This document shows, piece after piece, positions 1,021 to 37,775 of a DNA stretch of 37,775 bases (positions within the stretch are counted from its first letter, which is position 1; every line of letters starts with the position of its first letter). Source of the stretch: Phycisphaerae bacterium (lineage in GTDB: Bacteria > Planctomycetota > Phycisphaerae > UBA1845); the NCBI GenBank assembly GCA_049605375.1, contig JBMYUM010000002.1, forward strand, positions 1 to 37,775, given 5' to 3'. The translations under genes were made by a program, and so were the position numbers. Under the pieces are notes generated by a model. That model worked only from the letters and a program-made list of their open reading frames with translations, ran no database searches and had not been told where the DNA came from.

Positions 1021-1050
1021 TTGCATGAGGCCATGCCAAAGCGATACAAT
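1021..1050 (+). promoter_or_regulatory. Candidate sigma70-like promoter for the Cys-rich repeat gene
   Basis: TTGCAT (1021-1026), 18-nt spacer, TACAAT (1045-1050). It lies 45 nt upstream of the ATG at 1096. The -35 matches 3/6 and the -10 matches 5/6. Confidence 0.3.
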
Positions 1051-1095
1051 CCTGCTTTCGAAATTCACATGTTGGGAACCTGGGAAGGACCATCC

Positions 1096-12644: not shown

Positions 12645-12701
12645 GTTTTGACTGACGTGATTCATTCATTGACAACGGTTGCGTAATCGGGAACCAATCC
12701 C

Positions 12702-15583: not shown

Positions 15584-15590
15584 AACGACT

Positions 15591-20622: not shown

Positions 20623-20626
20623 AACA

Positions 20627-21295: not shown

Positions 21296-21309
21296 GCTCT
21301 TCTCGGATC

Positions 21310-22044
21310 TCAAGCCTCAGGGATCGCAAAGTTGGCGTGGCGTCGCGCAAGGCTGTCAAGTTCTTGAAAGGCCGCAACAGGATCTTCGCGACCAAAAACT
21401 GCGGTTCCCGCGACAAACATATCAGCCCCGGCTTCGGATGCCGCCGCGATCGTCGTCGCATCGATTCCGCCGTCGATCTCCAGCCGTTGATGCGTCGCCA
21501 GCCGTTGCGACAAGTCAACCACTTTCGGTAGCACATCAGGGATGAACTTCTGCCCACCGAACCCCGGCCAGACACTCATGACCAGCACCAGATCCACAGC
21601 TGGAAGAATGGATTCGATCGCACTGACCGGCGTCGTCGGATTGATAGACACACCGACCGCCATTCCAAGGGATCGAATGTGGTCGACGACTTCCGCGGGC
21701 TCATCCGCAACTTCGATATGAAACGTCAGCAGGTCGCAACCGGCATCAGCAAAGTCCTTGGCATATTTCTTCGGCTCCGAAATCATCAGGTGTGTATCGA
21801 GATACATATCCGAGCACGTCTTCACATGCTTGATGATACCGGGACCGAAACTGATATTCGGTACGAAGTGACCATCCATGACGTCGAGATGCAAGGCTTC
21901 GGCACCCGCTCCCTCGATCATGGTGATTTGATCGCGCAATGTTGTGAAATCGGCAGCCAACAACGAAGGCGCGATACGAATTTGTTTTTCTGCCAGAGCA
22001 AAGTCGGTCATGGTTTCAGCGTCGCGTGTCGAATTCTCGCTCAT
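21310..22044 (-). CDS. rpe: Ribulose-phosphate 3-epimerase
   Basis: IAPSLLAADF, HLDVMDGHFVPN, MSVWPGFGGQKF and EIDGGI motifs. Its ATG overlaps the pgk stop (ATGA). Confidence 0.95.
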   Translation of the reverse strand: MSENSTRDAETMTDFALAEKQIRIAPSLLAADFTTLRDQITMIEGAGAEALHLDVMDGHFVPNISFGPGIIKHVKTCSDMYLDTHLMISEPKKYAKDFADAGCDLLTFHIEVADEPAEVVDHIRSLGMAVGVSINPTTPVSAIESILPAVDLVLVMSVWPGFGGQKFIPDVLPKVVDLSQRLATHQRLEIDGGIDATTIAAASEAGADMFVAGTAVFGREDPVAAFQELDSLARRHANFAIPEA

Positions 22045-23270
22045 CGATTTTCCAGAACATCCAGCGCAGCGAACGATCCGTGTTCCAGCAACTCAAGGGA
22101 TGCACCACCTCCGGTGGAAACGTGGCTCATCTTTTCATCAAGGCCCGCCTGCTCTACGGCTGCGGCGCTATCGCCGCCACCAACGACGCCAATGGCACCA
22201 CTCGAGCAAACCTCAGCCATGATTTTCGCGAGCTCATTGGTTGCGTGATCAAACGGTGGGTGCTCGAACGCGCCCATCGGCCCGTTCCAAAATACGGTTC
22301 GTGCCTTCTGCAGTACTTCGGAGAATGCCGCCAACGACGATGGGCCAATATCGAGCCCCATCAAATCGTCGGGAATGTCGCCCGCATGGACGGTCACATG
22401 ATCACCGTCACTCAAACTCGTGCTGCACGCAGAGTCTACCGGCAGAACGATCTGGTCACGATAGTCGGCCAACAACTCACGGGCTGTTTTCATCAGGTCC
22501 GGCTCAACCAGACTCCGTCCGATCTTGGCACCGTCGGCAGCCAGGAATGTGTATGCCATGGCACCGCCGATCAGGATCTTGTCACACTTCTGCAAGAGCG
22601 CCCTTGTGACCCCCAGTTTGTCTGAGACTTTCGCGCCGCCGAGAATGCACACAAAGGGGCGTTCGGGGTCGCGGGTAAGAGGACCAAGAAACGCGAGCTC
22701 TTTCTCGACAAGGAACCCGACACCACGGGGACGATCGAGCATCTGCTGGGGAACCGTCAACATACTTGCGTTGCAACGATGGCAAGTACCGAACGCATCA
22801 TTCACATAGGCATCGGCGTGAACTGAGAGCCCCTTGGCAAACGCATCCTTGCGTGCGCGCAGTTCAGGATCAGTCGCGGCTTTCTTATCCTTGATCGTCT
22901 CCTCTTCATGGAAGCGAAGATTCTCAAGAAGCAGCACACCGCCCGGCTCGACACGTGAAACGGCGTCGTCTGCCGCCGCACCAATGCACGCCGGCACAAA
23001 CGCGACCGGCTGCCCCAGCACTTCGGCCATTCGTTGCGCAACGGGCGCCAGAGACAATCGCTGCCGATCCTCATCAGTCTTGGGCCGGCCCAGGTGAGAC
23101 ATCAGGACCAACCGTGCACCGCCTTCGATCAGGTGGCGTATGGTCGGCACACATGCCGTAATTCGACGGTCATTGGTGATTGTGCCGTCGTCGCCAAGGG
23201 GCACGTTCAAGTCAAGGCGTGCCAGAACGCGCTGCCCCTTGACATCCATTTCCTTGATGGATCGTTTCAT
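22041..23270 (-). CDS. pgk: Phosphoglycerate kinase
   Basis: RLDLNVPL, SHLGRPK, GGGDSAAAV and STGGGASLELLE motifs. It starts 2 nt after the gap stop. Confidence 0.97.
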   Translation of the reverse strand: MKRSIKEMDVKGQRVLARLDLNVPLGDDGTITNDRRITACVPTIRHLIEGGARLVLMSHLGRPKTDEDRQRLSLAPVAQRMAEVLGQPVAFVPACIGAAADDAVSRVEPGGVLLLENLRFHEEETIKDKKAATDPELRARKDAFAKGLSVHADAYVNDAFGTCHRCNASMLTVPQQMLDRPRGVGFLVEKELAFLGPLTRDPERPFVCILGGAKVSDKLGVTRALLQKCDKILIGGAMAYTFLAADGAKIGRSLVEPDLMKTARELLADYRDQIVLPVDSACSTSLSDGDHVTVHAGDIPDDLMGLDIGPSSLAAFSEVLQKARTVFWNGPMGAFEHPPFDHATNELAKIMAEVCSSGAIGVVGGGDSAAAVEQAGLDEKMSHVSTGGGASLELLEHGSFAALDVLENR

Positions 23271-23272
23271 AT

Positions 23273-24358
<1,086 letters not shown>

Positions 24359-25135: not shown

Positions 25136-26446
25136 CTACTCCTGGAAGCGCCGAATCACCAACGTATCGTTCTGACCGCCGAATCCAAAACTGTTGGACA
25201 AGGCAACCTCGACCTGCTTATCACGAGGCGTATTCGGAACGTAGTCCAAATCGCAGTTAGGATCGGATTCCTTGTAGTTGATGGTTGGTGGCACCTTACC
25301 ATCGCGGATGGCAAGCACGCAGGTGATCAACTCGACCGCACCGGCGGCAGCAATCAGGTGGCCGATCATGCTCTTGATGCTGCTGATCGCCAGGGAATAT
25401 GCATGCTCACCGAAGACACGCCGCACCGCCAGCGTCTCGATCTTATCGTTTTCCTCCGTTCCGGTACCATGGGCCGAAACGTAGTCGACGTCTTCCGGGC
25501 TGAGACCTGCGTCGCTCAAGGCAGACCGCATCGCCGCAATCGGACCTCTTCCCTCTTCGTGAATATCGGTGATACGAAACGCGTCAGCCGTTGAACCATA
25601 CCCCACGACTTCGGCGAGTATTTCGGCCCCGCGAGCCTTAGCATGCTCCAACTCTTCAAGAATGAGGATGCCCGCCCCCTCTCCAAGAACAAACCCATCT
25701 CGGGTCCGATCAAACGGACGGGACGCGGTCAGGCAGGAATCGTTACGCGTGGACAATGCGGTGAGGCGATTAAATCCTGTTACGCCCAACGGATGAATCA
25801 TGCTGTGCGTACCACCGGAAATCATGATGTCTGCGTCGCCGTACCGGATCAGTGCAGACGCTTCGCCAATCGCCTGCGTGCTCGCCGCACAAGCTGTTAA
25901 CGTGTTCAAGCTGGGCCCCTGTGCCTTGAATTGCACCGCCAGATGGCCCGCCGCAAGATTGGGGTCTTGTTCCAGTTCGTTGTGCGGATCAAGTCGGCGC
26001 AGCGCTTCTTCCGCCCAGCGAACGGTATTGAGGCTGTCAAAACCAGACTCACCGTGCCAGCAGCCGGACAGTGCAGCCGCCGAGAACGGATCAAAGTCCA
26101 GCGGGCCTTCGCCACCACCGAGGTAGACCCCGATTCGTGTGCGATCGATCAGACCATCCACTTCGAGACCGGCCTTCTTCCAGGCCATCGAGCACGCGGC
26201 AAGCGCAAACCTGGAATTCCGGCTTGCATGCTCATGCCGAGCGGCGTCTTGACCAAGGTAGTTCTCAAGCTTGCATTCTTTGACCTCAGACGTGAAGGTG
26301 GTCGGGAACGTCGACGCGTCAAAAAGCGTTGTCGGAGCAATCCCGCACTCACTCTTGAGCATGCGCCCCCACACTTCGTCGATACTGTCGCCCAGGGGTG
26401 TGACCCAACCGACTCCGGTGATGACTACTCGGCGGTTCATCGTCAT
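25136..26446 (-). CDS. Beta-ketoacyl-ACP synthase (FabF/KAS II-like), catalytically complete
   Basis: Cys-His-His triad present: LTACAASTQAIGEA, VSAHGTGT, SIKSMIGHLIAAAG. C-terminal NSFGFGGQN. Its ATG overlaps the stop of the upstream KS-like gene (ATGA). Confidence 0.92.
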   Translation of the reverse strand: MTMNRRVVITGVGWVTPLGDSIDEVWGRMLKSECGIAPTTLFDASTFPTTFTSEVKECKLENYLGQDAARHEHASRNSRFALAACSMAWKKAGLEVDGLIDRTRIGVYLGGGEGPLDFDPFSAAALSGCWHGESGFDSLNTVRWAEEALRRLDPHNELEQDPNLAAGHLAVQFKAQGPSLNTLTACAASTQAIGEASALIRYGDADIMISGGTHSMIHPLGVTGFNRLTALSTRNDSCLTASRPFDRTRDGFVLGEGAGILILEELEHAKARGAEILAEVVGYGSTADAFRITDIHEEGRGPIAAMRSALSDAGLSPEDVDYVSAHGTGTEENDKIETLAVRRVFGEHAYSLAISSIKSMIGHLIAAAGAVELITCVLAIRDGKVPPTINYKESDPNCDLDYVPNTPRDKQVEVALSNSFGFGGQNDTLVIRRFQE

Positions 26447-27786
26447 GAGGCCTCCTGATACTTCTTAATGACCAATGCGGCACACTGCCCACCTGCCAGA
26501 GCATAACTAGCCGAGATCGCCTGCATGACAGGTACATCCCGGGCATCTCCCTGGACAAAGTTGAAGCCACATCCATCCAACAAATCGTCCGTGTTATGTG
26601 ACACGGGAACCGTATTACGATTCAGTGCCATCGCCATGGCAGCGATGTCCAAGGCTCCCGAACCGGCGCCATTGTTTCCAAGAGCGCCACGGGTAGTCAG
26701 TGCAACCGTACTTGAGAGATTGTCGCCAAACACGTCCGTCCAGGCCTTCAATTCCGATCGATCAAAATCCGGAATGCCTGTGCCAAAGGGATTGAGAAGT
26801 TGACAGTCATCTGCGCTGGTACCTGAATCTGCGAGCGCTTTGCGAAGGGCAATAGACAAGGCCGTTCCATCATCAACGCCGGACCACGTTTGAATACTGC
26901 TGCTCGCGCCGAATCCTGCCAATTCCGCGTAAATGCGAGCACCGCGTGCTTTCGCATGCTCCAGCGATTCAAGAATGATCAAACCACCGCCTTCCGCGGC
27001 GACCGTACCCGACGCTTGACGACCAAACGGCCGACAGGCACCGGTCGGATCATCATTTGAATCTGACGATAGCCGACCACAAAGCGCAGGTCGTGCCATG
27101 GCCATCGGATTCATTTTTGATTCCGCCCCACCGCAGATGCAGACATCCGCAGCGCCGCGAGCAATCGTCCGGTAGGCTTCACCAATCGCAAGATGGCTGG
27201 ACGCTTCGGAGCATGTAATCGTATTCGATGGTGCTTGCGCATCGTGAACAATGGTGACGTGACACGCCAACATGTTGGGAAGAAACTTGAGCAGCCAGAG
27301 TGGCGTGAGATTGCTCATCCCTTCCCGCCCCCACGTCTGAATGTCAAAACGACCCGAGTCGTCAACCGCCGTGCTCAACGCCCCGGCGAGCTCTGTCAAA
27401 TCTGCACAGACAAGCCCTGCGCCAATGTTGGCGCCAAATCGCGAGCTCGCAACATTGGGGGGACCTTCAGACTCCCCACGATCAACAATGCATTTGGTCA
27501 CCAGCCCGGCGTCACGAACCGCATGATACGCCGCCACCACCGCGATCTTGATATCACGCGACATGACCTTGGCACTCTTACGGTACGACTTGGGAATGTG
27601 ATCACCAAGTTGAAACGCAGGAAGCTCACCGCCGACTTGCGAAGGCAATCCGCCGGGATCAAAACTCTCCACCCGACCAATTCCGGATTCCTTGCGAATT
27701 AGGGCGTCCCAGAACGGCTCGATGCCGATCCCGATGGGTGATGCCACACCAAGCCCGGTTATGACGACGCGTCGATCTGATGCCAT
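26443..27786 (-). CDS. Ketosynthase-like partner subunit (chain-length-factor-like), predicted catalytically inactive
   Basis: Thiolase-fold KS homolog (RRVVITGLGVASPIG ... ICGGAES ... AEGGGLIILESLEHAKARGA). Anchoring on [GA]P...IGEA, the active-site Cys aligns to Glu (APSNTITCSEASSHLAIGEA, codon 27207-27205). HGTGT becomes NPFGTG and GH becomes GN. ATG at 27786, GTG alternative at 27789. Confidence 0.85.
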   Translation of the reverse strand: MASDRRVVITGLGVASPIGIGIEPFWDALIRKESGIGRVESFDPGGLPSQVGGELPAFQLGDHIPKSYRKSAKVMSRDIKIAVVAAYHAVRDAGLVTKCIVDRGESEGPPNVASSRFGANIGAGLVCADLTELAGALSTAVDDSGRFDIQTWGREGMSNLTPLWLLKFLPNMLACHVTIVHDAQAPSNTITCSEASSHLAIGEAYRTIARGAADVCICGGAESKMNPMAMARPALCGRLSSDSNDDPTGACRPFGRQASGTVAAEGGGLIILESLEHAKARGARIYAELAGFGASSSIQTWSGVDDGTALSIALRKALADSGTSADDCQLLNPFGTGIPDFDRSELKAWTDVFGDNLSSTVALTTRGALGNNGAGSGALDIAAMAMALNRNTVPVSHNTDDLLDGCGFNFVQGDARDVPVMQAISASYALAGGQCAALVIKKYQEAS

Positions 27787-28388
27787 CACTCTATCGATGC
27801 CTCCATTTCGCCGGACTTCAGGCCGGTCGGCGACCCGGCGGGTGATCCATCATTCGCTGGACCATCTGACTTATCAGGGGGTTGAATACCACCACCGGCC
27901 GATTTATTCCCCAGATCAATTCCATGTGTTGCACGGAAATCGTCGACGAGGTGCATGAACTGATCCGTAAAGACGAAATTGTGCTCAGGCAAGCCGACCG
28001 CGTTGGCACCGTTGACATGCGAAAAAATCAAATCAATCGTGCCTGCAGGCTCTCCCTCGATCAAGACTTTTCCACTCGTGATGGCAGCCTGATCATCAAC
28101 ACTGACAATCGTCGCGTCGTACCGAATTTGTTGGCCGGGAAAGGCGTAGCGCGCCAACTCGACATGACGCAGTTTCGCCAACACGACGTTCTCGCGAAAG
28201 CCACGACTCTCTCCCACGAGGATGCCGGCCGTTTGTGCCATACCCTCGACCATCAACGTCGGTGGAAAGACCGGCCAATGGGGAAAATGGTCGTGGAGAA
28301 TCTCCTCTGCCAGCGTCACATTCTTCACGGAAGATGCCGACTGACCCGGTGAAAACGCCACCAAAGAATCGATCCAAATCCATCTCAT
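27786..28388 (-). CDS. FabZ/FabA-like (hot-dog fold) 3-hydroxyacyl-ACP dehydratase
   Basis: HDHFPHWPVFPPTLMVEGMAQTAG matches the FabZ HFPxxPVxPG...E..AQ motif, with the catalytic His and Glu present. The ATG at 28388 (MRWIWID) has GAGGAAAA upstream. The ORF-track start at 28529 is an unsupported extension. It has a low-complexity G/P/S C-terminal tail. Its stop overlaps the next start. Confidence 0.8.
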   Translation of the reverse strand: MRWIWIDSLVAFSPGQSASSVKNVTLAEEILHDHFPHWPVFPPTLMVEGMAQTAGILVGESRGFRENVVLAKLRHVELARYAFPGQQIRYDATIVSVDDQAAITSGKVLIEGEPAGTIDLIFSHVNGANAVGLPEHNFVFTDQFMHLVDDFRATHGIDLGNKSAGGGIQPPDKSDGPANDGSPAGSPTGLKSGEMEASIE

Positions 28389-28938
28389 AGCCGTCTGGTT
28401 TTCCTCTACTTGCAGACTAACGGTCGTACCGTGGCTAAGCAAGATGCGCGCCAATCCGCGCGACAACATGCCGAAGCAAACCACGAAGGGTAACATCTCC
28501 GCACCAGAACAACAAGAAACCCAGGGCACCGGTTGGGGATAATAGCGCCACCCTCAAAATCGGGGCGTCAATCGAATGAGGCACGCAACGTATTTGCTCT
28601 TCGATTGGCGCATTGTTCATGACGGCCTGAGGCACTCGGCAACAACGGGCGCGCACCGGAACTTTACAAGCAAGTTTCTGCGGGGTGTGAATTATCTATC
28701 GTTGAAAAGGCAGAAGTGTTGTGGATAGCCGAAGCTACCGACACGATTTGCCCACATGCACGAGCCTCGCGAGCCCGAATCCGCACGTGCGATCCATGAC
28801 GTCACCGCGCAGTGTTCAGCTCCTGGCGAAACACTGATCGACGCATCTGGTAATCGAGCTGGAAGAGCCTCGATACCTCCCGCCTCATGCGATTCGTACA
28901 TCGGCGAGAGCATCCTCGGTGCGAGAAGGCGCTACAGC

Positions 28939-28982
28939 ATCCAACATCGCGCTGGACGTTATCCAACATCGCGCTGGACGTT
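28939..28982. repeat. Perfect 22-nt tandem duplication in a non-coding gap
   Basis: atccaacatcgcgctggacgtt (28939-28960) is repeated exactly at 28961-28982. Each copy holds an imperfect palindrome AACATC-N6-GACGTT. Confidence 0.95.
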
Positions 28983-29087
28983 GAAGCGTGATCACACCAT
29001 CGGACGCATGATCACACGGTCGCGACCTGCCAGCCGCCGCGGGCAGGGATCAATACAACCCGTGCGCCGCGATTGCCGGTCTCGTCG

Positions 29088-29483
29088 CTATGCAGCAGCC
29101 TGAAGCTTGTTTTCCACATAGTTCACGATGGTGTTCACCGTGAACAGATCTGGCATTTTCGAAACACAAGCATCCTGCTCGAACTGGCTGAAGTCCGCAT
29201 GGGGCATGGCGGCTTTCAGTTTCTCCAGACCGGACGGCGTCATCTTGTCGCCATCGACGTAGTCTGGATTGTTCAGAATATCGTCAGGGAAGAGTTCTCC
29301 TTTGGGAATCTTGATGTCGAACGCCTTTTCCAGGCGAAACACGATGTCAAGGAAGTCAATGCTCTCAGCGCCAAGGTCTCCCTGCAGCGTCGCGCTGGGC
29401 GAAACCTCATCCTCTTCTACGCCAAGTGCATCAGTCAGCACATCGCGAACTTTTTCAAAGACGGCCTCACGGCTTGCAGCCAT
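29088..29483 (-). CDS. Acyl carrier protein with an internal ~45-aa insertion
   Basis: DLGAESIDFLDIVFRLEKAF matches the ACP DSLD-type phosphopantetheine site (Ser in ESID). The terminal LFTVNTIVNYVENKL corresponds to ACP helix IV. About 45 residues are inserted between them. The ATG at 29483 is preceded by GGAGG. Confidence 0.82.
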   Translation of the reverse strand: MAASREAVFEKVRDVLTDALGVEEDEVSPSATLQGDLGAESIDFLDIVFRLEKAFDIKIPKGELFPDDILNNPDYVDGDKMTPSGLEKLKAAMPHADFSQFEQDACVSKMPDLFTVNTIVNYVENKLQAAA

Positions 29484-29580
29484 TCCCTCTAGACCTCCAT
29501 CAACCAACCAAACTTTACTACGTCTGTCCGGTGGTCATCCCACCGCACCCGAACCGTCCATGGCTCGAATTCCATTTGTA

Positions 29581-30153
29581 TCAAGCATGCAACAGCGTCA
29601 GCCGCTGTTTCGCATGATCAATAAGCTTACGATCCAAATCCGAAAGCGAACCAATAACGTCGGCAGCATCAACGGCATTCGCCGGTTCTCCCGCTCCGTC
29701 AACGCCACCTGCCGTTGCCCCACCATCGTTGGGTGACAACACATGAGGAGACGACCGATGGAACGATGCAACCGAACCATGCCGAAGCGTGAATCGGGCC
29801 TTTACCATTTCCGCGCCGGCACAGGTCCCGCTGCCACTGAATACGCTCTCTGTATCTGAAAGAGAGCGACAAGCAATGTCCAACTCAAGCAAGTTACCCG
29901 GTTTGACAAAGCTCTTGTATGTTACGTTCTTCGCGTTCGCTAGCAAGATCACACTGACACGGAAATCGAGGGAAACACGGACCAGCCATGCCGCCGCCTC
30001 GACCATCGCTTCCAACATGAACACCCCCGGCAAAACCGGAAACGTCGGGAAGTGGTCAGCTAAGTATTCCTCCGACAGCGAGACCGCTTTGACAGCCTTT
30101 ACCCGCTTGCCGGCTTCAAGTTCTACGATGCGATCAATCAGCTCGAACTTCAT
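29581..30153 (-). CDS. Second FabZ-like (hot-dog fold) dehydratase
   Basis: LADHFPTFPVLPGVFMLEAMVEAAAW matches the FabZ motif with His and Glu present. ATG start at 30153. It has a ~60-aa non-hot-dog C-terminal tail. Confidence 0.8.
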   Translation of the reverse strand: MKFELIDRIVELEAGKRVKAVKAVSLSEEYLADHFPTFPVLPGVFMLEAMVEAAAWLVRVSLDFRVSVILLANAKNVTYKSFVKPGNLLELDIACRSLSDTESVFSGSGTCAGAEMVKARFTLRHGSVASFHRSSPHVLSPNDGGATAGGVDGAGEPANAVDAADVIGSLSDLDRKLIDHAKQRLTLLHA

Positions 30154-30337: not shown

Positions 30338-32089
30338 CTACCAGTCAAAATGGCTCGAAAGACCACCTCGAAGCGGCTTCTTACGCTTCTTGGGCACATG
30401 CGGCGTGTCTGCCTGCGGTGCGGCATCTTCCTTGATCTCGTCCATCTGACTCACCTGTCGAATAGACAACGAAATGCGACGGTTCTCACTATCGACCCCG
30501 AGAACACGGGTTTCTATTTCATCTCCGACAGAGACGACGTCGCCACATGCCCGCACACGCTTCTCAGACAACTCCGAGATGTGAATCAGACCCTCGACAC
30601 CCGTGACCAATTCCACAAACACACCGAAATCGGCCAAACGAGTGACCTTGCCCTTGATGATCGACTTCTCCTCGAAGGAAGAAAGCACATTCTCCCAGGG
30701 GTCAGCCTGAGCTTGCTTCATACTCAGGGCAATTCGCCGCCTCTTCGGCTCTACACGCATGACCGCGCAATCGACCATGTCACCAACCGTGACGGCGTCG
30801 CTGGCCTTGCGAACACGCGACCAGCCCATTTCGCTGATCGGTATCAGAGCCTCAATGCCGGTCTCAAGCTCCGCGAAGGCGCCAAAATCTGCCAGCCGAA
30901 CAACGCGTGCTTTGACCCGAGCCCCTTCCTGATAGCGGTCGCCGACACCTTCCCATGGATCGGGCAGCGCCTGCTTGAGACCGAGGGAAATGCGATTGCG
31001 CTCGAGATCAATCTTCAGAACGCGAACCTCAACCTCGTCCCCTTGCTTCACGATGTCAGCCACGTTGTCGACCATGCTGTAGCTCAGGTCACGCTTGTGA
31101 ACCAGACCATCAACGCCACCAAGATCGACAAATGCACCAAAGTCCGTCAAGTTACCCACAACACCCTTGCGAACCTGCCCCACTTCCAGACTCTCAAGCA
31201 CGCCTTGCCGCTTCTCAACACGCTCTCGCTCTAGCACTTTGCGACGGCTGACGAGGAGGTTCTTCGCACGGCGATCAATTTCCATCACGTCAACGCGAAC
31301 CTGCGCGTTGAGCAGAACAGAGATGTCTTTCATCGGGGACAAATCAGCTTGCGACGCAGGCATGAAGCCGCGCAACCCGTTCAAACTGACCTCCAGCCCG
31401 CCTTTGATCAATCCCGTCACACGGCCTTCCAAGGTGCTGCCGATTTCTACAGTATCCCACGAGGCCTTCTGCACCGCTCCCTTGATGTGGGCGTTTGCCA
31501 GACCGGAACCGTCATCGACACGGTCGATGATGGCTTCGATACTGTCACCAACCGCCGGAACGTCGTTGAACTGCGATGCCGGGATAACAGCCTGGGATTT
31601 CCCACCGAATTCGATAAAGACGTCATCCCCCGATACACCGGACACGCGGCCTGTGACCGTCGCCCCTCGAACCAGGTCACCGGCCCCTGACGCAACAGCC
31701 CCGGCTGCAGAAGCGGCCAGACCACCGCTGAGTTCTGCCAGGTCTGACGCATCCATTCCTTCCATGGCGCGCTGAACCTCTTGATCGATAGCCGTCATTT
31801 CAGATTCGGTGGAAGCCATTGGCGCAGGGTTTGCGTCGGCTTCTGCCAACACGTCCATCGGTGTCGCGGGAGTCCCGGAAGCGGGAATGCCAGGCGGCGT
31901 TGAGCCCACCCCACCCGACTCCTGCGAAGAACCGGTACCGGAATCGGCAACGGTTGGCTCAGGAACGTGGTTCGGAGCCGGCGAAGCATCGCCATGTTGG
32001 TTTGCCGTGGATTCGGATGAACCCCCAGCCGGTGTTGGATCAACAGGGGGCAGATTCCCCGTACCTTCGGTGTTCGGCGAGTCAGTCAT
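30338..32089 (-). CDS. rpsA: 30S ribosomal protein S1 with a long low-complexity N-terminal extension
   Basis: Five recognisable S1 domains: GATVTGRVSGV..., GSTLEGRVTGLIKGGLEV, GQVRKGVVGNLTDFGAFVDLGG, GARVKARVVRLADFGAFAEL, IIKGKVTRLADFGVFVEL. The ORF-track start at 32101 is TTG and the first ATG is at 32089. Other internal ATGs are possible. Confidence 0.92.
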   Translation of the reverse strand: MTDSPNTEGTGNLPPVDPTPAGGSSESTANQHGDASPAPNHVPEPTVADSGTGSSQESGGVGSTPPGIPASGTPATPMDVLAEADANPAPMASTESEMTAIDQEVQRAMEGMDASDLAELSGGLAASAAGAVASGAGDLVRGATVTGRVSGVSGDDVFIEFGGKSQAVIPASQFNDVPAVGDSIEAIIDRVDDGSGLANAHIKGAVQKASWDTVEIGSTLEGRVTGLIKGGLEVSLNGLRGFMPASQADLSPMKDISVLLNAQVRVDVMEIDRRAKNLLVSRRKVLERERVEKRQGVLESLEVGQVRKGVVGNLTDFGAFVDLGGVDGLVHKRDLSYSMVDNVADIVKQGDEVEVRVLKIDLERNRISLGLKQALPDPWEGVGDRYQEGARVKARVVRLADFGAFAELETGIEALIPISEMGWSRVRKASDAVTVGDMVDCAVMRVEPKRRRIALSMKQAQADPWENVLSSFEEKSIIKGKVTRLADFGVFVELVTGVEGLIHISELSEKRVRACGDVVSVGDEIETRVLGVDSENRRISLSIRQVSQMDEIKEDAAPQADTPHVPKKRKKPLRGGLSSHFDW

Positions 32090-32255
32090 AATAACAGTCA
32101 AACCTTACGATTATCGGGCCGTCAAGTCGACCACCGACGAAACGTGACCCGAATAAGAGATGCAATCCAGATTCTGCGACAGCCCGTGCACGACATAGAG
32201 GACCGTACACGAGATAGACGGATACGAGCTATAAACAGCCCCAGACGCCCATCAG

Positions 32256-32289
32256 CCCCATACGCCAGTCGGCCCCATAGGCCAGTCGG
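32256..32289. repeat. 17-nt tandem repeat x2 with 1 mismatch
   Basis: ccccatacgccagtcgg (32256-32272) and ccccataggccagtcgg (32273-32289). It lies in the rpsA-proximal part of the 856-nt divergent intergenic region. Confidence 0.9.
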
Positions 32290-32548
32290 ACTCGTCTAAG
32301 AAACAGGCAGCGATAACATTTGTGACAGAACCCGATGTGCCCCGCATTCGCCAGCACGCCGGGTAGGGTCAACTTCGCGCCCGGATTCCCGAGGAATCTC
32401 TCTTCTTAATGCTGCTATCGCCGAAAGTCAAGCCTGCACCACGTCTGCCCATGCACCAGTCTCGGTAAGAAGCATTCCGCGCACATATCATCGCCAGGAT
32501 TGTCCGATAATGGGCAAGCAAGGTGGATCGGCAGGGGTCAATTTTACC

Positions 32549-32578
32549 TTGACATATCTGGGATTCCAGGCTTAATAT
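32549..32578 (+). promoter_or_regulatory. Near-consensus sigma70-like promoter facing the giant Cys-rich gene
   Basis: TTGACA (32549-32554), then TTAATA after a 17-nt spacer or TAATAT after an 18-nt spacer (32572-32578). This is the best -35/-10 match I found in the window. It implies a ~380-nt leader before the ATG at 32958. Confidence 0.4.
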
Positions 32579-32788
32579 GGTCGATTCGGAGAGGCTGCGC
32601 TCCCCTGCGCACAATCTGCAGGGTTGTCCACCAGGATAGGGAACCTTCGTATTGCATTGGTTTCCCGGCGCTTGGGCTTTCCGCGTGACATAACCATGTT
32701 GGGGCTCGTGAAGAAATGGAGAAGGAAGAAGCACACCATTTCGCACGCGGGTTAATGGGCATAGCGGTCAAGTGACCTGGTTTCGATC

Positions 32789-32833
32789 GTTGTTGAGCGG
32801 ACTGTTGTTGAGTGGACGGTTGTTGAGAGGAAG
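32789..32833. repeat. 15-nt imperfect tandem repeat x3 (GTTGTTGAGnGGAnn)
   Basis: gttgttgagcggact, gttgttgagtggacg, gttgttgagaggaag. It lies about 125 nt upstream of the ATG at 32958. Confidence 0.85.
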
Positions 32834-32873
32834 ACTGTTCCACGCCTGAAGACCGGAATCGACCGGGAGCGGG

Positions 32874-32918
32874 AATCAACGAGCGTCAATCAACAGACGT
32901 AAATCAATCGACAATCAA
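32874..32918 (+). promoter_or_regulatory. Four phased AATCAA boxes upstream of the giant gene start
   Basis: AATCAA at 32874, 32888, 32902 and 32913, spaced 14, 14 and 11 nt apart. They lie 40-84 nt upstream of the ATG at 32958. Function unknown; possibly a direct-repeat regulator site or a leader element. Confidence 0.25.
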
Positions 32919-32957
32919 TTGACCAGGTCGGATGAATTTGGAGAGGGAAGGGAACAG

Positions 32958-35900
32958 ATGCAAAAGCAGCACCTTTGGGCTGTAGCCGCAGTATTGTCGG
33001 CCTGCTGTCAGGCTTGGGCGGTCACGCCAATCACTATCGATTTTTCGGTGGAAGATGATGGCGTAACGCCGCTCGTCAACGGTCAAGACATCAGCACGCC
33101 GCCAGAGTTCGGTGTCTATTTCAATGTTTCTTCGACGGGCAATAACCTCGGACCGGCTATCTTCGATACCGATCCCAGTGGCCCGAACGGAAGCGGACCT
33201 GACCCTGACCTGCTCGTTGATGCCGGCAACTGCATCATGCTGCAGAGCAACTCTTCACCCACGCAAACCACCAGCGGCATCTTTGACACACCGAATGACT
33301 CGGCCGCAGGCGGAACGCTGACCTTCGATTTTGCCGCTGCCGGCGCGAATGTCCGGGTCGTCAGCATGGACGCGTTGGACCGTGATGGAAACGGTCGCGC
33401 CATCATGACACTGACGGACGGCAACGGCGCTCAGCGTGTTGTCGACATTCCGAACCAGTTCACCGGCGAAGCGCCCGGTGACCCGGGAATCGCCACCATT
33501 GATCTCGAAACGGGCAGCCCGACGGAATCCCCCAACATTCCGGGCCTCTTCACGACCGTTAACACCGACCCGGGATTCAACATTGACGATGTGGCTTCTC
33601 TGGTTGTGACATTCATCGGGTCCGGTGGTGTCAGCAACCTGACCTTCATCCCGCCGTGTGTCGTTGATGCCGATTGTGATGACGGCGTATTCTGTAATGG
33701 TGCGGAAGCCTGTGTAAGCGGCGTTTGCCAGAACGGCACGGCTCCGGATTGCGACGACAGCATCGATTGCACCGTTGACAGTTGCGACACCAACACCGAC
33801 AGCTGCCAGAATTCACCGCTTGATGACCTTTGCGACAACAACCTCTTCTGCGACGGCGTTGAAGTCTGTGACCCGAACAACGGCTGCCAGGCTGGACCGG
33901 CACCGGACTGCAACGACAGCGTGGGTTGCACCGTCGACAGCTGCAACGAAGACACGGATTCCTGCGACAATCTGCCAAGTGATGCGGCCTGTGACGACGG
34001 CGCATTCTGTAATGGTGTCGAAACATGCGACCCGAACAACGATTGTCAGGCAGGTAGTGCACCAAACTGCGATGATAGCGTCGGCTGTACGGTCGATAGC
34101 TGCAACGAAGATACCGACTCCTGCGACAACATGCCGAATGATGCCGCGTGTGACGATGGCGCATTCTGTAACGGTGTCGAAGTCTGTGATCCTGACAACG
34201 ACTGTCAGGCCGGCACTCCGCCGAACTGTGACGACAGCGTCGATTGCACCATTGACACGTGCAACGAAACGACGGACTCGTGCAACAACTCGCCCAGCGA
34301 TGCAGCTTGCGATGACGGGCTCTTCTGCAATGGCGTTGAAACCTGTGACCCGAACAACGATTGCCAGGCCGGCACCCCGCCGAACTGCGATGACGGTGTC
34401 GGCTGCACCATGGACAGTTGCAACGAAGACACCGATTCGTGCGACAACATGCCGGTTGACGCCCTGTGTGACAACGGTCAGGGTTGCGACGGCTTGGAAA
34501 CCTGTGATCCCAACAACGATTGCCAGCCGGGTACGCCGCCGAATTGTGATGACGGCATCGCCTGCACCATCGATTCATGCGACCCGGACACCGGCGAGTG
34601 CATCAATGTGCCGGATGACAGCCTTTGCAACGATGGTCTTTTCTGTAACGGCGTAGAAACCTGCAGCCCGGTCAATGGATGTGAAGCCGGCACGCCGCCG
34701 ATTTGCGACGACGGTGTCAGCTGCACCATGGACAGCTGCAACGAAGATACCGATTCATGCGACAACATGCCGAATGACGGTCTTTGCAACGACGGCGCGT
34801 TCTGCAACGGCGTCGAAACCTGTGATCCAACCAATGACTGCCAGGCCGGCACGGCTCCAGACTGCAACGACAATGTCGACTGCACGACGGATGCCTGTGA
34901 CGAGAACGCAGACACCTGCACGAACACGCCTTCAAATGCCGCCTGCGATGACAACGTAAGCTGCACCGTCGACGTCTGCGATCCAATCACGGGTTGCTCG
35001 AACTCGCCGGATGACAGCCTTTGCAACGATGGCGATTTCTGCAACGGCGTCGAAACCTGCGACCCGAACAATGATTGCCAGGCCGGCTCCGCACCAGATT
35101 GTGATGATGGCATCGCATGCACGGAAGATTCGTGCGACGAGGCCAATGACACATGCACGAGCACGCCGGTCAACGCACTCTGCGATGACGGCGTTGATTG
35201 CACCGTTGATGAATGTGTAGCTGGTCTGGGTTGTCAGAACACACCCGACGACAGCTTCTGCGCCAACGGCCTGTTCTGCGACGGGAATGAAGTTTGCGAT
35301 CCGGTCAACGATTGCCAGGACGGCACGGCACCATGCAACGAACCACTTCGATGCGATGAAGACGCCGACGAATGCGTTGATTGCCTGACCGACGGCCAAT
35401 GCGATGACGGAAACTTCTGCAACGGTATTGAAATCTGCATCGGCAGCCGTTGCATTCCGGGAACACCGCCAAATTGTGACGATGGTATCGCCTGCACCGT
35501 CGACTCCTGTAATGAAGACACGGATTCGTGTGATAACACGCCGGACGACAGCTTCTGCTCCAACAGCCTGTTCTGCGATGGTGCTGAAGTTTGCGATCCG
35601 AACAATGGATGTATTGCCGGAGCTGCACCGAATTGCGACGACGGCGTGAGCTGCACCGTCGACATTTGCAACGAGGACTCAGATTCGTGCGATAACACAC
35701 CGGACGACAGCGTTTGCTCGAACGGCCTGTTCTGTGACGGCGCCGAAGTCTGCGATCCCAACAGTGATTGCCAGCCAGGCACGCCGCCGAATTGCAACGA
35801 CGGCGTAAGCTGCACCGTCGATGCCTGCAACGAGGACACCGATTCGTGCGACAACACGCCGGATGACAGCGTTTGCTCGAACGGCAACTTCTGTGACGGT

Positions 35901-37148
35901 GTTGAAGTCTGCGATCCGAACAATGATTGCCAGCCAGGTATGGCAGTCAATTGCGACGATGGCGTCAGCTGTACCATCGACGTTTGCAACGAGAATACGG
36001 ATTCTTGCGACAACACGCCGGATGACAGCGTCTGTAGCGATGGCCTGCAGTGCAACGGAATCGAAATCTGTGACCCGTCAAATGATTGCCAGGCGGGAAC
36101 CCCGCCGAATTGCGACGACGGTATCGCATGTACCATCGACGTCTGTGACGAAGCCGGTGGCTGTACGAACACGCCGGACGACAGCCTCTGCGACAATGGC
36201 AATTTCTGTGACGGTGCGGAAGTCTGCGACCCGGTTAACGGTTGTAAGGGCGCCATGCCGGTCAACTGCGATGACGGCGTTGCGTGTACTGTCGACGTCT
36301 GCAACGAAGACAGCGATTCCTGCGATAACCTGCCGGATGACAGCATCTGCTCGAACGGCAACTTCTGCGACGGCGCTGAAGTTTGCGATCCGACCAATGA
36401 TTGCCAGCCGGGCTCACCAGTGAACTGCAGTGACGGCGTCGACTGCACTGTTGATGTCTGCGACGAAGATGCAGACCAGTGCTCAAACACACCGGATAAC
36501 AGCTTGTGCGACAACGGCTCGTTCTGTGATGGTGTGGAAGTCTGCGACCCGACGCTCGACTGTCAGCCGGGTGGCGGTGATCCATGCGACGACAGTGTCG
36601 GTTGTACCGTGGACGCTTGCGATGAAGCAACGGACATGTGCAACAACACGCCGAATGACGCACTATGCGACGATGGCGAATTCTGCAACGGCGTTGAAAC
36701 GTGTGATCCGACCGGTGACTGCCAGGCGGGTGATGCACCGATTTGCGACGACGGTAACGCCTGCACAACCGATGTGTGTAGCGACATCACGGATCAATGT
36801 GTAAGCACGCCGAACAACGCGGCCTGCAATGACAACGATCCATGCACGCTCGACATCTGCACCGAGAACGGATGCATGAACAGCCAGATCTGCGGTGCAT
36901 GCTGCTTCCCGGACAACACCTGCAACGATCAGGTCACCCTGAGCGAGTGTGCGGCTACCGCAAACACCAGCTTCGAGGGAATTGGCTCTGAGTGTGCCGG
37001 TGACAGCAACAACAACGGCCTCGATGACAACTGCGAACCGGGCGAGCAGGTTCCCACGGTCTCCGAATGGGGCCTCGTGATCCTGGCATTGCTGCTCGGC
37101 ACGATGGGCAAGTTGTATTTCGGACGTCGCGAAGCGGACTTTGCATAA
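32958..37148 (+). CDS. Giant secreted cysteine-rich repeat protein with IPTL/PEP-CTERM-type sorting tail
   Basis: The ORF-track start at 32919 is TTG. The ATG at 32958 follows GAGAGGGAAGGGAA and opens a signal peptide (MQKQHLWAVAAVLSACCQAWA). Next come a ~210-aa nearly Cys-free domain, 21 CDDGxxCTxDxC(N/D)EDTDSC half-modules alternating with 19 CxNGxFC(N/D)GxExCDPxNDCQxG half-modules, a GACCFPDNTCND...ECA segment, and VPTVSEWGLVILALLLGTMGKLYFGRRE. Confidence 0.9.
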   Translation: MQKQHLWAVAAVLSACCQAWAVTPITIDFSVEDDGVTPLVNGQDISTPPEFGVYFNVSSTGNNLGPAIFDTDPSGPNGSGPDPDLLVDAGNCIMLQSNSSPTQTTSGIFDTPNDSAAGGTLTFDFAAAGANVRVVSMDALDRDGNGRAIMTLTDGNGAQRVVDIPNQFTGEAPGDPGIATIDLETGSPTESPNIPGLFTTVNTDPGFNIDDVASLVVTFIGSGGVSNLTFIPPCVVDADCDDGVFCNGAEACVSGVCQNGTAPDCDDSIDCTVDSCDTNTDSCQNSPLDDLCDNNLFCDGVEVCDPNNGCQAGPAPDCNDSVGCTVDSCNEDTDSCDNLPSDAACDDGAFCNGVETCDPNNDCQAGSAPNCDDSVGCTVDSCNEDTDSCDNMPNDAACDDGAFCNGVEVCDPDNDCQAGTPPNCDDSVDCTIDTCNETTDSCNNSPSDAACDDGLFCNGVETCDPNNDCQAGTPPNCDDGVGCTMDSCNEDTDSCDNMPVDALCDNGQGCDGLETCDPNNDCQPGTPPNCDDGIACTIDSCDPDTGECINVPDDSLCNDGLFCNGVETCSPVNGCEAGTPPICDDGVSCTMDSCNEDTDSCDNMPNDGLCNDGAFCNGVETCDPTNDCQAGTAPDCNDNVDCTTDACDENADTCTNTPSNAACDDNVSCTVDVCDPITGCSNSPDDSLCNDGDFCNGVETCDPNNDCQAGSAPDCDDGIACTEDSCDEANDTCTSTPVNALCDDGVDCTVDECVAGLGCQNTPDDSFCANGLFCDGNEVCDPVNDCQDGTAPCNEPLRCDEDADECVDCLTDGQCDDGNFCNGIEICIGSRCIPGTPPNCDDGIACTVDSCNEDTDSCDNTPDDSFCSNSLFCDGAEVCDPNNGCIAGAAPNCDDGVSCTVDICNEDSDSCDNTPDDSVCSNGLFCDGAEVCDPNSDCQPGTPPNCNDGVSCTVDACNEDTDSCDNTPDDSVCSNGNFCDGVEVCDPNNDCQPGMAVNCDDGVSCTIDVCNENTDSCDNTPDDSVCSDGLQCNGIEICDPSNDCQAGTPPNCDDGIACTIDVCDEAGGCTNTPDDSLCDNGNFCDGAEVCDPVNGCKGAMPVNCDDGVACTVDVCNEDSDSCDNLPDDSICSNGNFCDGAEVCDPTNDCQPGSPVNCSDGVDCTVDVCDEDADQCSNTPDNSLCDNGSFCDGVEVCDPTLDCQPGGGDPCDDSVGCTVDACDEATDMCNNTPNDALCDDGEFCNGVETCDPTGDCQAGDAPICDDGNACTTDVCSDITDQCVSTPNNAACNDNDPCTLDICTENGCMNSQICGACCFPDNTCNDQVTLSECAATANTSFEGIGSECAGDSNNNGLDDNCEPGEQVPTVSEWGLVILALLLGTMGKLYFGRREADFA
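33657..36890 (+). repeat. About 20 tandem 53-aa (159-nt) 8-cysteine coding repeats
   Basis: Example unit: CDDSVGCTVDSCNEDTDSCDNLPSDAACDDGAFCNGVETCDPNNDCQAGSAPN. Adjacent units differ mostly at synonymous third positions (for example ggttgcaccgtcgacagc versus ggctgtacggtcgatagc). Confidence 0.9.
37050..37145 (+). other. IPTL-CTERM-like (PEP-CTERM variant) exosortase sorting signal
   Basis: VPTVSEWG motif, hydrophobic helix LVILALLLGTMGKLYF and basic cluster GRRE at the extreme C-terminus. It matches my recollection of the IPTLxxWG-CTERM signature. Confidence 0.75.
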
Positions 37149-37198
37149 AGTCAGACAGTCCGGCCCGTTCCGGAGTCTGTGAAAATTGATACAATATC

Positions 37199-37231
37199 GG
37201 CCCGGCGGGAATACCGTCGGGCCTTTCTTTT
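37199..37231 (+). terminator. Rho-independent terminator after the giant gene
   Basis: GGCCCGGCGG (37199-37208), loop GAATA, CCGTCGGGCC (37214-37223). This is a 10-bp stem with 1 mismatch, followed by TTTCTTTT (37224-37231). An additional hairpin without a U-tract lies at 37152-37179 (CAGAC-ag-TCCGG / CCGGA-GTCTG). Confidence 0.7.
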
Positions 37232-37312
37232 AGACTGGTAACGTGCACAGGGATCGACGATAATCCCCGTAACCCTAAGTGGGCAAAACACTTGTAAGTC
37301 CGGAAAAACGAA

Positions 37313-37775
37313 GTGGCGAAGAAACCCAAGAAACCAGACCAATCCCAGCCCGGCAACGGTGACGCCACCCCACCATCGGGTGAGGGCAAGGTGCGTCGGA
37401 GACGACGGGCACCGAAGTCATGGTCGCAAACTCACGGCCGTGACATCAAGTTCCTTGGGATTTTCCTCGGTTTGGTGGGGCTCTATTTCGCAGCGACAAC
37501 CACATCATTCATGAATGATCAGTTCTTTCCGTGGTATCTTCGCTTGAACGCAGAAGCATCAGGGCTGTTGTTGAACGCCATGGGCTACGACGATGTTTCC
37601 GTGCGAGACCAATCGCTGATCGGCGCTTTCCGTATGCAGATTGCCCGCGGATGTGACGGCATGGACCCGTCCGCACTCTTTATCGCTGCGGTCCTGGCCT
37701 CACCTGTGGCTTTCCGTCGAAAGCTGCCGGCCTTGTTGATCGGAACAGGACTCTTGCTCGTCCTTAATGTGTTGC
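37313..37775 (+). CDS. Exosortase/archaeosortase-family protein, 3'-truncated by the window edge (possibly XrtH-like)
   Basis: The frame is open from 37298 to the window end and is absent from the ORF track because it has no stop. The probable start is GTG at 37313; there is no ATG before the first TM. It has a basic N-terminus (KVRRRRRAPK), hydrophobic helices (FLGIFLGLVGLYFAATT, ALFIAAVLASPVAF, ALLIGTGLLLVLNVL) and QIARGCDGMD at the position of the exosortase CxG catalytic-Cys motif. Confidence 0.65.
   Translation, partial: MAKKPKKPDQSQPGNGDATPPSGEGKVRRRRRAPKSWSQTHGRDIKFLGIFLGLVGLYFAATTTSFMNDQFFPWYLRLNAEASGLLLNAMGYDDVSVRDQSLIGAFRMQIARGCDGMDPSALFIAAVLASPVAFRRKLPALLIGTGLLLVLNVL

Follow-up and report, generated by a model that had tools for sequence, protein, structure and literature searches.

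A cysteine-rich stalk protein with an IPTL-CTERM tail beside an exosortase H-like gene in a Phycisphaerae bacterium: a probable surface-display system with more than one substrate

The end of the window, meaning the whole 37,775-nucleotide stretch of DNA analysed, probably encodes an exosortase-type surface-display system, in which the enzyme and a partner protein serve many tail-bearing proteins. Its two visible components are a secreted Cys-rich cargo protein with an IPTL-CTERM tail and, downstream on the same strand, a predicted exosortase gene that is cut by the window end. The locus is a fairly ordinary enzyme-substrate neighbourhood and probably not an exclusive one-to-one pair. The third component, a Cys-less exosortase-like partner, is always present in relatives and would lie beyond the window end.

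The cargo gene (positions 32,958 to 37,148, + strand) was delimited by its open reading frame and translation and by Pfam and NCBIfam model matches. It encodes a secreted protein of 1396 aa, like in the first-pass annotation, and contains a signal peptide, a head domain, a Cys-rich stalk, a pre-anchor segment, and an IPTL-CTERM tail, in this order. Every sequence element listed in that annotation, including the pre-anchor segment, was found in the sequence. Cysteine accounts for 175 of the 1396 residues (12.5%), where roughly 170 had been given. An identical cargo protein is encoded on only one other contig, SRR27204692_42247 from Logan, which ends 300 nt past the cargo stop. The earlier statement that this architecture matches no characterised protein was too strong. 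The repeats belong to Pfam Dicty_CTDC, the kin of the head are small PEP-CTERM proteins, and the predicted architecture is recognisable.

The signal peptide covers aa 1–21 (32,958 to 33,020, + strand; MQKQHLWAVAAVLSACCQAWA, with cleavage before V). An n-region, an h-region, and an AWA cleavage motif can be read from the sequence, and the cleavage position is that of the homologous small proteins. The peptide has two Cys and a lipobox-like LSAC string at aa 13–16. A lipoprotein reading of the cargo was set aside, as the homologous heads show an ordinary AxA site in the equivalent position. The head domain, defined by homologues and an AlphaFold2 model, is a predicted beta-sandwich at aa 22–232 (33,021 to 33,653, + strand). 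This N-terminal domain had been called Cys-free, which is not strictly so because of a single non-conserved Cys at residue 92. The head has 61 homologues with 37–55% identity, which are Planctomycetota proteins of 240–270 aa composed of a signal peptide, the head domain, and a PEP-CTERM tail. The AlphaFold2 model has an all-beta fold with a pLDDT of 94.3. Its PDB fold matches are CBM11, CBM6, and agarase CBM-like domains. Since these matches are weak (TM 0.35–0.4), a sugar-binding role for the head is only a guess.

The Cys-rich stalk spans aa 234–1312 (33,657 to 36,893, + strand) and was defined by motif counts, segmentation, DNA period, AlphaFold2, and fold match. It consists of about 20 modules of 53 aa with eight Cys each, every module comprising a CTxDxC half and an FC(N/D)GxExC half, and has an irregular centre at aa 636–839. 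Regular-expression counts on the cargo gave 21 C[TS]xDxC and 19 xC[ND]GxExC motifs, in exact agreement with the half-modules counted before. The DNA itself shows two arrays with a period of 159 nt. Their copies match at only 69–74%, and the stalk repeats are therefore old and diverged and no assembly artefact. Pfam Dicty_CTDC (PF00526) scores 36.5 bits on the cargo against a cutoff of 27, in seven matched stretches, with a model that spans the CTxDxC half-module only. The first-pass annotation had proposed structure prediction for two to three repeat units, and a three-module AlphaFold2 model is confident (pLDDT 96.3); each module forms two beta-hairpins, a long one and a short one. The best PDB fold match of the three modules is the heavy chain of the Entamoeba Gal/GalNAc lectin (9gjb_H, E 5.6e-5). 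Searching PDB sequences with three modules of the stalk gave nothing usable, the top match being scytovirin at E 0.03.

The Cys-rich region might instead act as a metal-binding sheath, as had also been suggested, or as a sponge, in either case with thiolate ligands, and the high Cys content and the regular CxxxxC spacing would suit such a role. This is nevertheless highly improbable, and the suggestion is unsupported. The cargo is predicted to be exported to an oxidising compartment, the number of Cys per module is even, and the confident beta-hairpin model needs no metal. In addition, the nearest fold is an extracellular lectin region, and the Dicty_CTDC family occurs in extracellular matrix and spore-coat proteins. 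These features argue for a disulfide-bonded stalk.

The pre-anchor segment lies at aa 1313–1364 (36,894 to 37,049, + strand) and includes GDSNNNGLDDNCE, which fits the motif GDxNGNGxDDxCE. It is followed by the IPTL-CTERM sorting tail at aa 1365–1396 (37,050 to 37,145, + strand), supported by HMM matches and comprising VPTVSEWG, a transmembrane helix, and YFGRRE. Read from the sequence, the tail is VPTVSEWG, LVILALLLGTMGKLYF, and GRRE, and the protein thus combines the tripartite layout with an N-terminal signal peptide. TIGR04174 scores 24.3 bits on the whole cargo and 29.9 bits on the last 65 aa (cutoff 20.5), and PF18203, the Pfam IPTL-CTERM model, scores 28.5 bits at aa 1365–1384 (cutoff 20.8). 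The motif, helix, and basic tail noted earlier are hence above both IPTL-CTERM cutoffs, while PEP-CTERM (PF07589) gave no match on the cargo at E <= 1. The 65-aa tail matches 405 clusters (50% identity) at E <= 1e-3. Among the best 150 of these, 126 have an IPTVSEWG-type ending on otherwise unrelated proteins of 55–2347 aa with about 1–15% Cys. The family consensus is IPTVSEWGLvvLALLLLTaGKiyFGRRR, and in 85 of the 126 cluster representatives GDxNGNGxDDxCE stands 2–7 residues ahead of the IPTVSEWG motif. This distribution agrees with criteria 7 and 8 that Haft gives for one-to-many signals, with criterion 8 because the head-domain homologues carry PEP-CTERM instead.

The downstream gene probably encodes an exosortase-family protein. 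Its 5′ part (37,313 to 37,775, + strand; 154 codons) was assigned as XrtH-like by HMM scores and homologues. The reading frame has a GTG start at 37,313, about 80 nt after a U-tract, and encodes, besides a basic N-terminal extension, several hydrophobic segments and an RGCDG motif with Cys114. It runs off the window, as had been described for an RGCDG-bearing frame at this distance, about 30 codons before the expected Arg. The fragment scores 32.1 bits for XrtX, 30.6 bits for XrtH, and 22.7 bits for exo_archaeo (cutoff 23), where it covers model positions 1–51 of 97 because the frame is cut.

Its 81 homologues, of which the complete ones have 205–221 aa, come from Phycisphaerae and other Planctomycetota MAGs, in line with the planctomycete-type genome proposed before. 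The best match in GTDB species representatives is 58% identical. All ten full-length homologues tested exceed the cutoff of 23 for exo_archaeo (TIGR04178), the signature model of the exosortase/archaeosortase superfamily (also PF09721), with 39–51 bits. Cys114 is invariant in 13 of 13 aligned sequences, like expected for the catalytic Cys. Across 12 full-length homologues, conservation of the Arg (column 183) and of the His (column 202) is at least 90%. The exosortase-like label is upheld by these data, and the exosortase H assignment only in part. XrtH (TIGR04177) is the best subfamily for the ten homologues at 54–87 bits, and ranks first or second in every sequence scored, including the window fragment. 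Strict membership does not hold, since nine of the ten reach 54–77 bits against a cutoff of 86, and the distant P0076 alone reaches 86.9. A literature search on 'Exosortase H' and 'XrtH' found no relevant characterisation.

In relatives, the exosortase gene and an overlapping gene for the Cys-less partner form an always-present unit, and the earlier description of a module of two genes does not hold. The partner gene was downstream in seven of seven loci inspected by gene calls, and a candidate partner frame was seen in nearly all of the 43 loci having downstream DNA. In hhalign, the partner matches the exosortase over the catalytic core with 88.5% probability (E 2.7e-6); the partner lacks the catalytic Cys, and one Arg is invariant. 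Identity with the XrtH-associated membrane protein (NF041730) was rejected, as the partners of seven relatives gave no match at E <= 1 and weakly resemble exosortases instead.

Two hairpins after the cargo stop, one with a U-tract, had been noted, and both were found by RNA folding of the intergenic region. The first (37,152 to 37,179, + strand) has no U-tract and a local fold of -12 kcal/mol. The second (37,199 to 37,231, + strand) resembles an intrinsic terminator, with a stem at 37,199–37,223 of ten pairs, nine of them G-C, followed by TTTCTTTT. It is homologous in two related loci (L013 and L017), and one compensatory base pair occurs among the closest relatives. In a local-folding scan, most related loci that have a cargo next to the exosortase also have a strong hairpin at this position. 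A simple terminator scan of three homologous intergenic regions found none, which is due to its strict T-run rule, as local folding showed strong hairpins there. Rfam gave no match in 32,000–37,775. The terminator-like hairpin probably lets cargo transcripts outnumber enzyme transcripts.

In about 14 of 43 species-level loci, the exosortase is directly preceded by a same-strand frame with an IPTL-type tail. An exosortase H-like gene thus co-occurs with IPTL-CTERM in the window and in these related loci, and because the cargo-exosortase order recurs, the predicted pairing is genuine. The cargo bodies at these loci differ in length (150 to 2050 aa) and in their number of Cys (0 to 239). It is quite improbable that the adjacency is incidental, with the cargo processed by another sorting enzyme, such as a PEP-CTERM exosortase elsewhere, or held in the membrane and never cleaved. 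The PEP-CTERM tails on the head homologues imply a second exosortase system in these organisms, and a terminator-like hairpin separates the two genes, both of which would suit this explanation. However, the tail of the cargo itself is of the IPTL-CTERM and not the PEP-CTERM type, and the recurrence of this tail beside this exosortase clade on unrelated bodies is hard to explain without a functional link.

How exclusive the pairing is forms a separate matter. In a strictly dedicated system, the genome would have a single IPTL-tailed protein and the exosortase would serve solely to process it. The window has only one IPTL-type tail in its 37.7 kb, the adjacent same-strand arrangement recurs as described, and precedents of this type exist, such as JDVT-CTERM. 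Strict dedication is unlikely even so, as the flanking DNA examined contains no tail-bearing frame for about half of the relatives. One of them (L011) keeps the synteny, with the exosortase, partner, and radical-SAM genes directly beside rpsA and no cargo. Conversely, two proteins with such tails are encoded within 10 kb at one locus (L049), another (L003) has a second gene with the variant tail VPTIAQGG two genes downstream, and the tail is common to hundreds of otherwise unrelated clusters. From the first-pass annotation of a dedicated sortase-substrate pair, the recurring adjacency stands; the "one cargo" and "one cargo / one sortase" parts are not supported, given a tail shared by at least 126 unrelated clusters and the relatives with no cargo or two in the flanking DNA examined.

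In the favoured reading of a shared enzyme with many substrates, the cargo would be exported by its N-terminal signal peptide. About 172 stalk Cys would form disulfides in the periplasm, and the model and the fold similarity suggest that about 20 modules of two hairpins each make up a long, rigid rod. The C-terminal IPTL-type helix would anchor the cargo in the inner membrane, where the XrtH-like polytopic Cys/Arg/His exosortase may cut at VPTVSEWG and hand the new C-terminus to an acceptor, by analogy with ArtA and PEP-CTERM systems. To our knowledge, an acceptor has been demonstrated for no exosortase, whatever its subfamily, so that this cleavage and transfer step is proposed wholly by analogy. 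The product would be an envelope-anchored stalk with the CBM-like beta-sandwich head at its distal N-terminus, and would most likely act as an adhesin or matrix-binding fibre. The enzyme would not be private to the stalk cargo. A Phycisphaerae-wide pair of exosortase and Cys-less partner would serve many proteins with the extended tail, and the stalk cargo would be the substrate that occupies the operon-proximal slot in its lineage.

A broader proposal can be made only tentatively. There may be an unnamed subfamily of exosortases in Phycisphaerae-type Planctomycetota whose functional form is an obligate pair of an active XrtH-like enzyme and a translationally coupled Cys-less paralogue, the latter being a pseudoenzyme, substrate receptor, or acceptor-handling subunit. 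The extended signal recognised would comprise the Ca-binding-like GDxNGNGxDDxCE loop, IPTVSEWG, a transmembrane helix, and YFGRRR. Heads might be exchanged at the operon-proximal cargo slot while stalk and anchor stay conserved, which would yield lineage-specific adhesins with lengths of tens of nanometres.

Exosortase systems are widespread, and almost nothing about them is known to have been tested outside the archaeal ArtA. The present locus is a compact study case: the substrate is clear, the enzyme is probable, and relatives always have a paralogue that looks inactive. It could bear on the attachment targets of exosortases, on their possible action as heteromers, and on long surface fibres in planctomycete-type cells. 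It extends the IPTL-type signal well past proteobacteria and does not overturn current understanding.

The XrtH and IPTL-CTERM models have been described mainly from proteobacteria. The present system resembles them (TIGR04177, TIGR04174, PF18203) in its tripartite tail of IPT[LV]SEWG, transmembrane helix, and basic cluster, and in its short enzyme, whose core (about 160 aa) matches the XrtH model over its full length and scores best for this subfamily. A second membrane-protein gene beside the enzyme is analogous to the XrtH-associated membrane protein. In contrast, the clade falls mostly below the XrtH cutoff, is hosted by Phycisphaerae and other Planctomycetota, and is extended at the N-terminus by about 45 aa of basic character. 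The partner also lacks a match to NF041730 (XrtH_assoc), and the tail adds the conserved GDxNGNGxDDxCE segment.

The PEP-CTERM/XrtA (EpsH) system has the same enzyme superfamily, the same sorting logic, and one enzyme for many cargos (PMC1569441). It differs in its VPEP signature, compared to IPTVSEWG here, and in its tail model, which does not match the cargo. The neighbours in the window are housekeeping genes, with no EPS locus seen among them. ArtA, which acts on the PGF-CTERM S-layer glycoprotein of Haloferax volcanii, is the sole experimentally dissected member of the superfamily. It cuts a tripartite tail, after which the protein is lipid-attached, and mutagenesis has shown that ArtA needs its Cys173, Arg214, and Arg253 (PMC9263693). 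ArtA is archaeal, larger, and has another recognition motif, and no comparable experiment is known for any XrtH-like enzyme.

The S-layer protein mela_00855 of Methylomirabilis lanthanidiphila also ends in IPTL-CTERM (PMC8671808). This cell-surface layer protein is the only characterised protein with such a tail in the searched literature. It has 312 aa, no Cys-rich repeats, and belongs to another phylum. The stalk shares its repeat family (PF00526) with the CTDC-repeat matrix and spore-coat proteins of Dictyostelium and with the Cys-rich region of the heavy chain of the Entamoeba histolytica Gal/GalNAc lectin, which among solved structures matches the fold of three modules best. These proteins are eukaryotic, have other anchors, and have a sequence identity of about 21%, with a low global TM-score as is expected of flexible rods. 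They are nonetheless Cys-rich, extracellular, and structural or adhesive, like the cargo is predicted to be, and the locus connects a stalk of bacterial origin with Cys-rich stalks on amoebozoan surface proteins.

The cargo gene (32958-37148, + strand) encodes 1396 aa with 175 Cys, which corrects the figure of about 170 in the first-pass annotation. An exact regular-expression count gives 21 C[TS]xDxC and 19 xC[ND]GxExC motifs. Cutting the stalk at the CDDG-type module starts yields mostly 53-aa pieces with 8 Cys each, and the irregular centre (aa 636-839) includes a variant module and two half-modules of the CTDC type alone. The gene contains two DNA repeat arrays with a period of 159 nt and 69-74% matches, which indicates that the repeats are old and diverged, and neither a recent duplication nor an assembly artefact. 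The stalk matches Pfam Dicty_CTDC at 36.5 bits (cutoff 27). In a predicted structure of three modules (pLDDT 96.3), each comprises one long and one short beta-hairpin. These modules match no solved structure by sequence, and their best fold match is 9gjb_H, the heavy chain of the Entamoeba histolytica Gal/GalNAc lectin, in its Cys-rich region (E 5.6e-5, probability 1.0, 21% identity). Related Cys spacings are found in two kinds of disulfide-rich structural protein outside the cell, the spore-coat proteins of Dictyostelium and CREMP of the avian eggshell membrane.

The head (aa 22-232), previously described as Cys-free, is nearly so, with one non-conserved Cys at residue 92. It has 61 homologues at 37-55% identity in Planctomycetota proteins of 240-270 aa, which are composed of a signal peptide, the head domain, and a PEP-CTERM tail of the classic type (VPEP..RRRR). 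The AlphaFold2 model is a confident beta-sandwich (pLDDT 94.3) with only weak PDB fold matches (TM 0.35-0.4) to CBM11, CBM6, and agarase CBM-like domains. Orthologous cargos at two related loci, L003 and L006, are 45-47% identical to that of the window in the stalk and tail, and differ in the N-terminal ~520 aa. Taken together with the head, stalk, and tail evidence, this makes the cargo read as a swappable head, a rigid disulfide-rich stalk, and a C-terminal anchor, an arrangement typical of surface adhesins or fibres. The earlier view that the architecture matches no characterised protein goes too far, given the repeats (Dicty_CTDC) and the head (PEP-CTERM family). The signal peptide has a lipobox-like LSAC at aa 13-16 (window 32994-33005) followed by a second Cys, and a lipoprotein is possible. 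Cleavage by signal peptidase I at AWA|V seems more likely, since the head homologues have ordinary AxA cleavage sites.

The cargo ends in VPTVSEWG, then LVILALLLGTMGKLYF, then GRRE. The proposed IPTL-type tail is borne out by NCBIfam TIGR04174, with 24.3 bits for the whole protein and 29.9 bits when only the final 65 aa are scored (cutoff 20.5), and by Pfam PF18203, with 28.5 bits for the tail (cutoff 20.8). Used as a query on 1.84 billion cluster representatives, these C-terminal 65 aa hit 405 clusters at E <= 1e-3, and 126 of the best 150 carry a terminal IPTVSEWG-type motif. These 126 representatives range from 55 to 2347 aa, with a Cys content of about 1-15%. They are unrelated to one another in their N-terminal parts, and their tail consensus is IPTVSEWGLvvLALLLLTaGKiyFGRRR. 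Among them (tails of P0205-P0353, the tail-bearing set), 85 have a GDxNGNGxDDxCE-like motif, resembling a calcium-binding loop, at a distance of 2-7 residues on the N-terminal side of IPTVSEWG. The pre-anchor segment of the window (36894-37049), GDSNNNGLDDNCE, conforms to this motif, which falls outside the 27- or 28-position IPTL-CTERM models.

The exosortase ORF starts at GTG 37313 (+ strand) and runs past the window end, as the contig ends within it. One other contig carries an identical cargo and ends 300 nt past the cargo stop. The available 154 aa, with RGCDG, give partial scores of 32.1 bits for XrtX and 30.6 bits for XrtH, and 22.7 bits for exo_archaeo (cutoff 23) with half of the model covered. 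A protein search gave 81 homologues; complete ones have 205-221 aa, and all named ones come from Planctomycetota or Phycisphaerae MAGs. Ten of ten full-length homologues pass the general exosortase signature (39-51 bits). The RGCDG Cys is invariant in the alignment, and the Arg (..VRI..) and His (MHLDVWQ), at positions past the window end, are at least 90% conserved. XrtH is the best or second-best subfamily for the ten (54-87 bits), and only the distant homologue P0076 reaches its cutoff of 86. The proposed exosortase-like gene is thereby supported at family level, and XrtH identity is reduced to nearness: by homology, the truncated gene belongs to a clade that resembles XrtH and is not covered by any named subfamily model.

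Gene calls covered seven homologue loci, and 185,579 species genomes, when scanned, gave 43 exosortase loci, nearly all from Phycisphaerae or other Planctomycetota; the two sets agree. Of the first reading, one cargo for one sortase, the pairing is supported: about 14 of the 43 have an IPTL-type-tailed ORF directly upstream of the exosortase and on its strand. These ORFs have 150 to 2050 aa and 0 to 239 Cys; the CTDC stalk is found in the cargos of L013, L017, L021, L022, L036, and L002, the other cargo loci have unrelated bodies, and the head domain of the window is absent from cargos at related loci with an upstream tail-bearing ORF. Exclusivity is unlikely: the tail occurs on unrelated clusters, L011 keeps the window-like synteny and lacks the cargo entirely, and L049 has two tail-bearing proteins inside 10 kb. 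In roughly half of the loci, the flanks covered (up to 10 kb per side) contain no ORF with such a tail. By the criteria of Haft, regular enzyme-target adjacency marks dedicated systems, while one-to-many systems are signalled by proteins that share the tail alone and by homologues elsewhere that bear a different tail. Since both one-to-many signals are present in the tail system of the window and adjacency is frequent too, it is best described as a one-to-many system in which the operon-proximal cargo is favoured.

At L003 (11453-12715), two genes downstream of the exosortase, a 420-aa protein has the variant tail VPTIAQGG, a transmembrane helix, basic residues, and ~35 residues beyond; it may be a second substrate, divergent or cut mid-protein. 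The Phycisphaerae MAG CAXXGO01 has the exosortase-partner pair twice (L024 and L048), one beside a 667-aa tail-bearing cargo and the other without cargo.

The partner gene (216-296 codons across the loci) overlaps or abuts the exosortase 3' end. It has 232-282 codons and overlaps in all seven gene-called loci (L002:2631-3461, L003:10608-11369, L006:8444-9202, L007:8629-9342, L008:8506-9354, L010:8608-9306, L011:8491-9195), and a candidate ORF for it is present in nearly all loci with downstream DNA. Its profile aligns with that of the exosortase over 67 columns of the catalytic core (hhalign, 88.5% probability, E 2.7e-6), with the catalytic Cys replaced and one Arg invariant. It matches neither the XrtH-associated protein model nor any named family. 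The partner is, from its profile, a distant, pseudoenzyme-like exosortase paralogue, and this constant component, outside the window, is the most intriguing part of the system.

Two hairpins follow the cargo stop codon. The second (37199-37223), a stem of 10 pairs of which 9 are G-C, precedes TTTCTTTT. When 13 loci whose cargo is adjacent were scanned by local folding, most showed a strong hairpin rich in G-C (-21 to -32 kcal/mol) between cargo stop and exosortase start, many with T-rich tails. L013 and L017 have hairpins homologous to that of the window, and among these a single base pair shows a compensatory change (C-G to U-A). This recurrence and the compensatory change support the suggested terminator structurally; that the hairpin ends transcription is our inference.

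Elsewhere in the window, the rpsA-cargo divergent intergenic region (32102-32957) is unusually long at 856 nt, has no Rfam match, and contains one sigma-70-like site (32549-32578), not above chance expectation. A KS-KS-FabA-ACP-FabA (ApeI-like) cluster (25136-30153, - strand) adjoins rpsA, keeps its synteny in L001, L003, and L011, and could belong to a specialised lipid or aryl-polyene-type pathway. At L011, these genes and rpsA form one flank, and radical-SAM, GAPDH, and PGK genes form the opposite one. The GAPDH-PGK-RPE-accD block (19816-24313, - strand) lies upstream of the fatty-acid-type cluster; in L006 (10988-15881) and L011 (11442-15430) it is on the + strand and follows the genes for exosortase, partner, and radical-SAM protein downstream, and its placement in the window is, from gene order, a rearrangement relative to these loci. 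ABC ATPase, ABC-2 permease, DUF7088, and DUF4340 genes (11715-17972, + strand) make up what looks like a transporter cluster of four genes, in which the accessory proteins are large. The 646-aa ORF at 1021-2961 (+ strand) has no Pfam match at E <= 1e-4.

Sequence and models show how the domains are laid out, to which class the tail and to which family the enzyme belongs, that the partner gene and the hairpin are conserved, and that the adjacency recurs. From established knowledge, the cargo would be exported via Sec, form its disulfides in the periplasm, and be retained by its C-terminal helix. By analogy with ArtA, in which Cys173, Arg214, and Arg253 are essential (PMC9263693), the Cys-based enzyme would then cleave it at the signature motif and pass it to an acceptor. 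The single IPTL-CTERM protein characterised in the papers searched belongs to an S-layer, a precedent for surface location (PMC8671808).

The locus is a sensible extension of known exosortase systems and would hardly surprise a specialist. It works like XrtH/IPTL-CTERM, with a broader likeness to PEP-CTERM/XrtA: its tail is a formal IPTL-CTERM domain, and its enzyme, judged by the full-length homologues, falls in the exosortase superfamily. In contrast, the enzyme clade scores below the XrtH cutoff, the partner fails the XrtH-associated model, the system is found in a different phylum, and the enzyme has an N-terminal basic extension. The extended tail motif and the Cys-less paralogue as constant partner further differentiate the window-type system, and its cargo differs from known systems in joining a PEP-CTERM-family head to a CTDC stalk.
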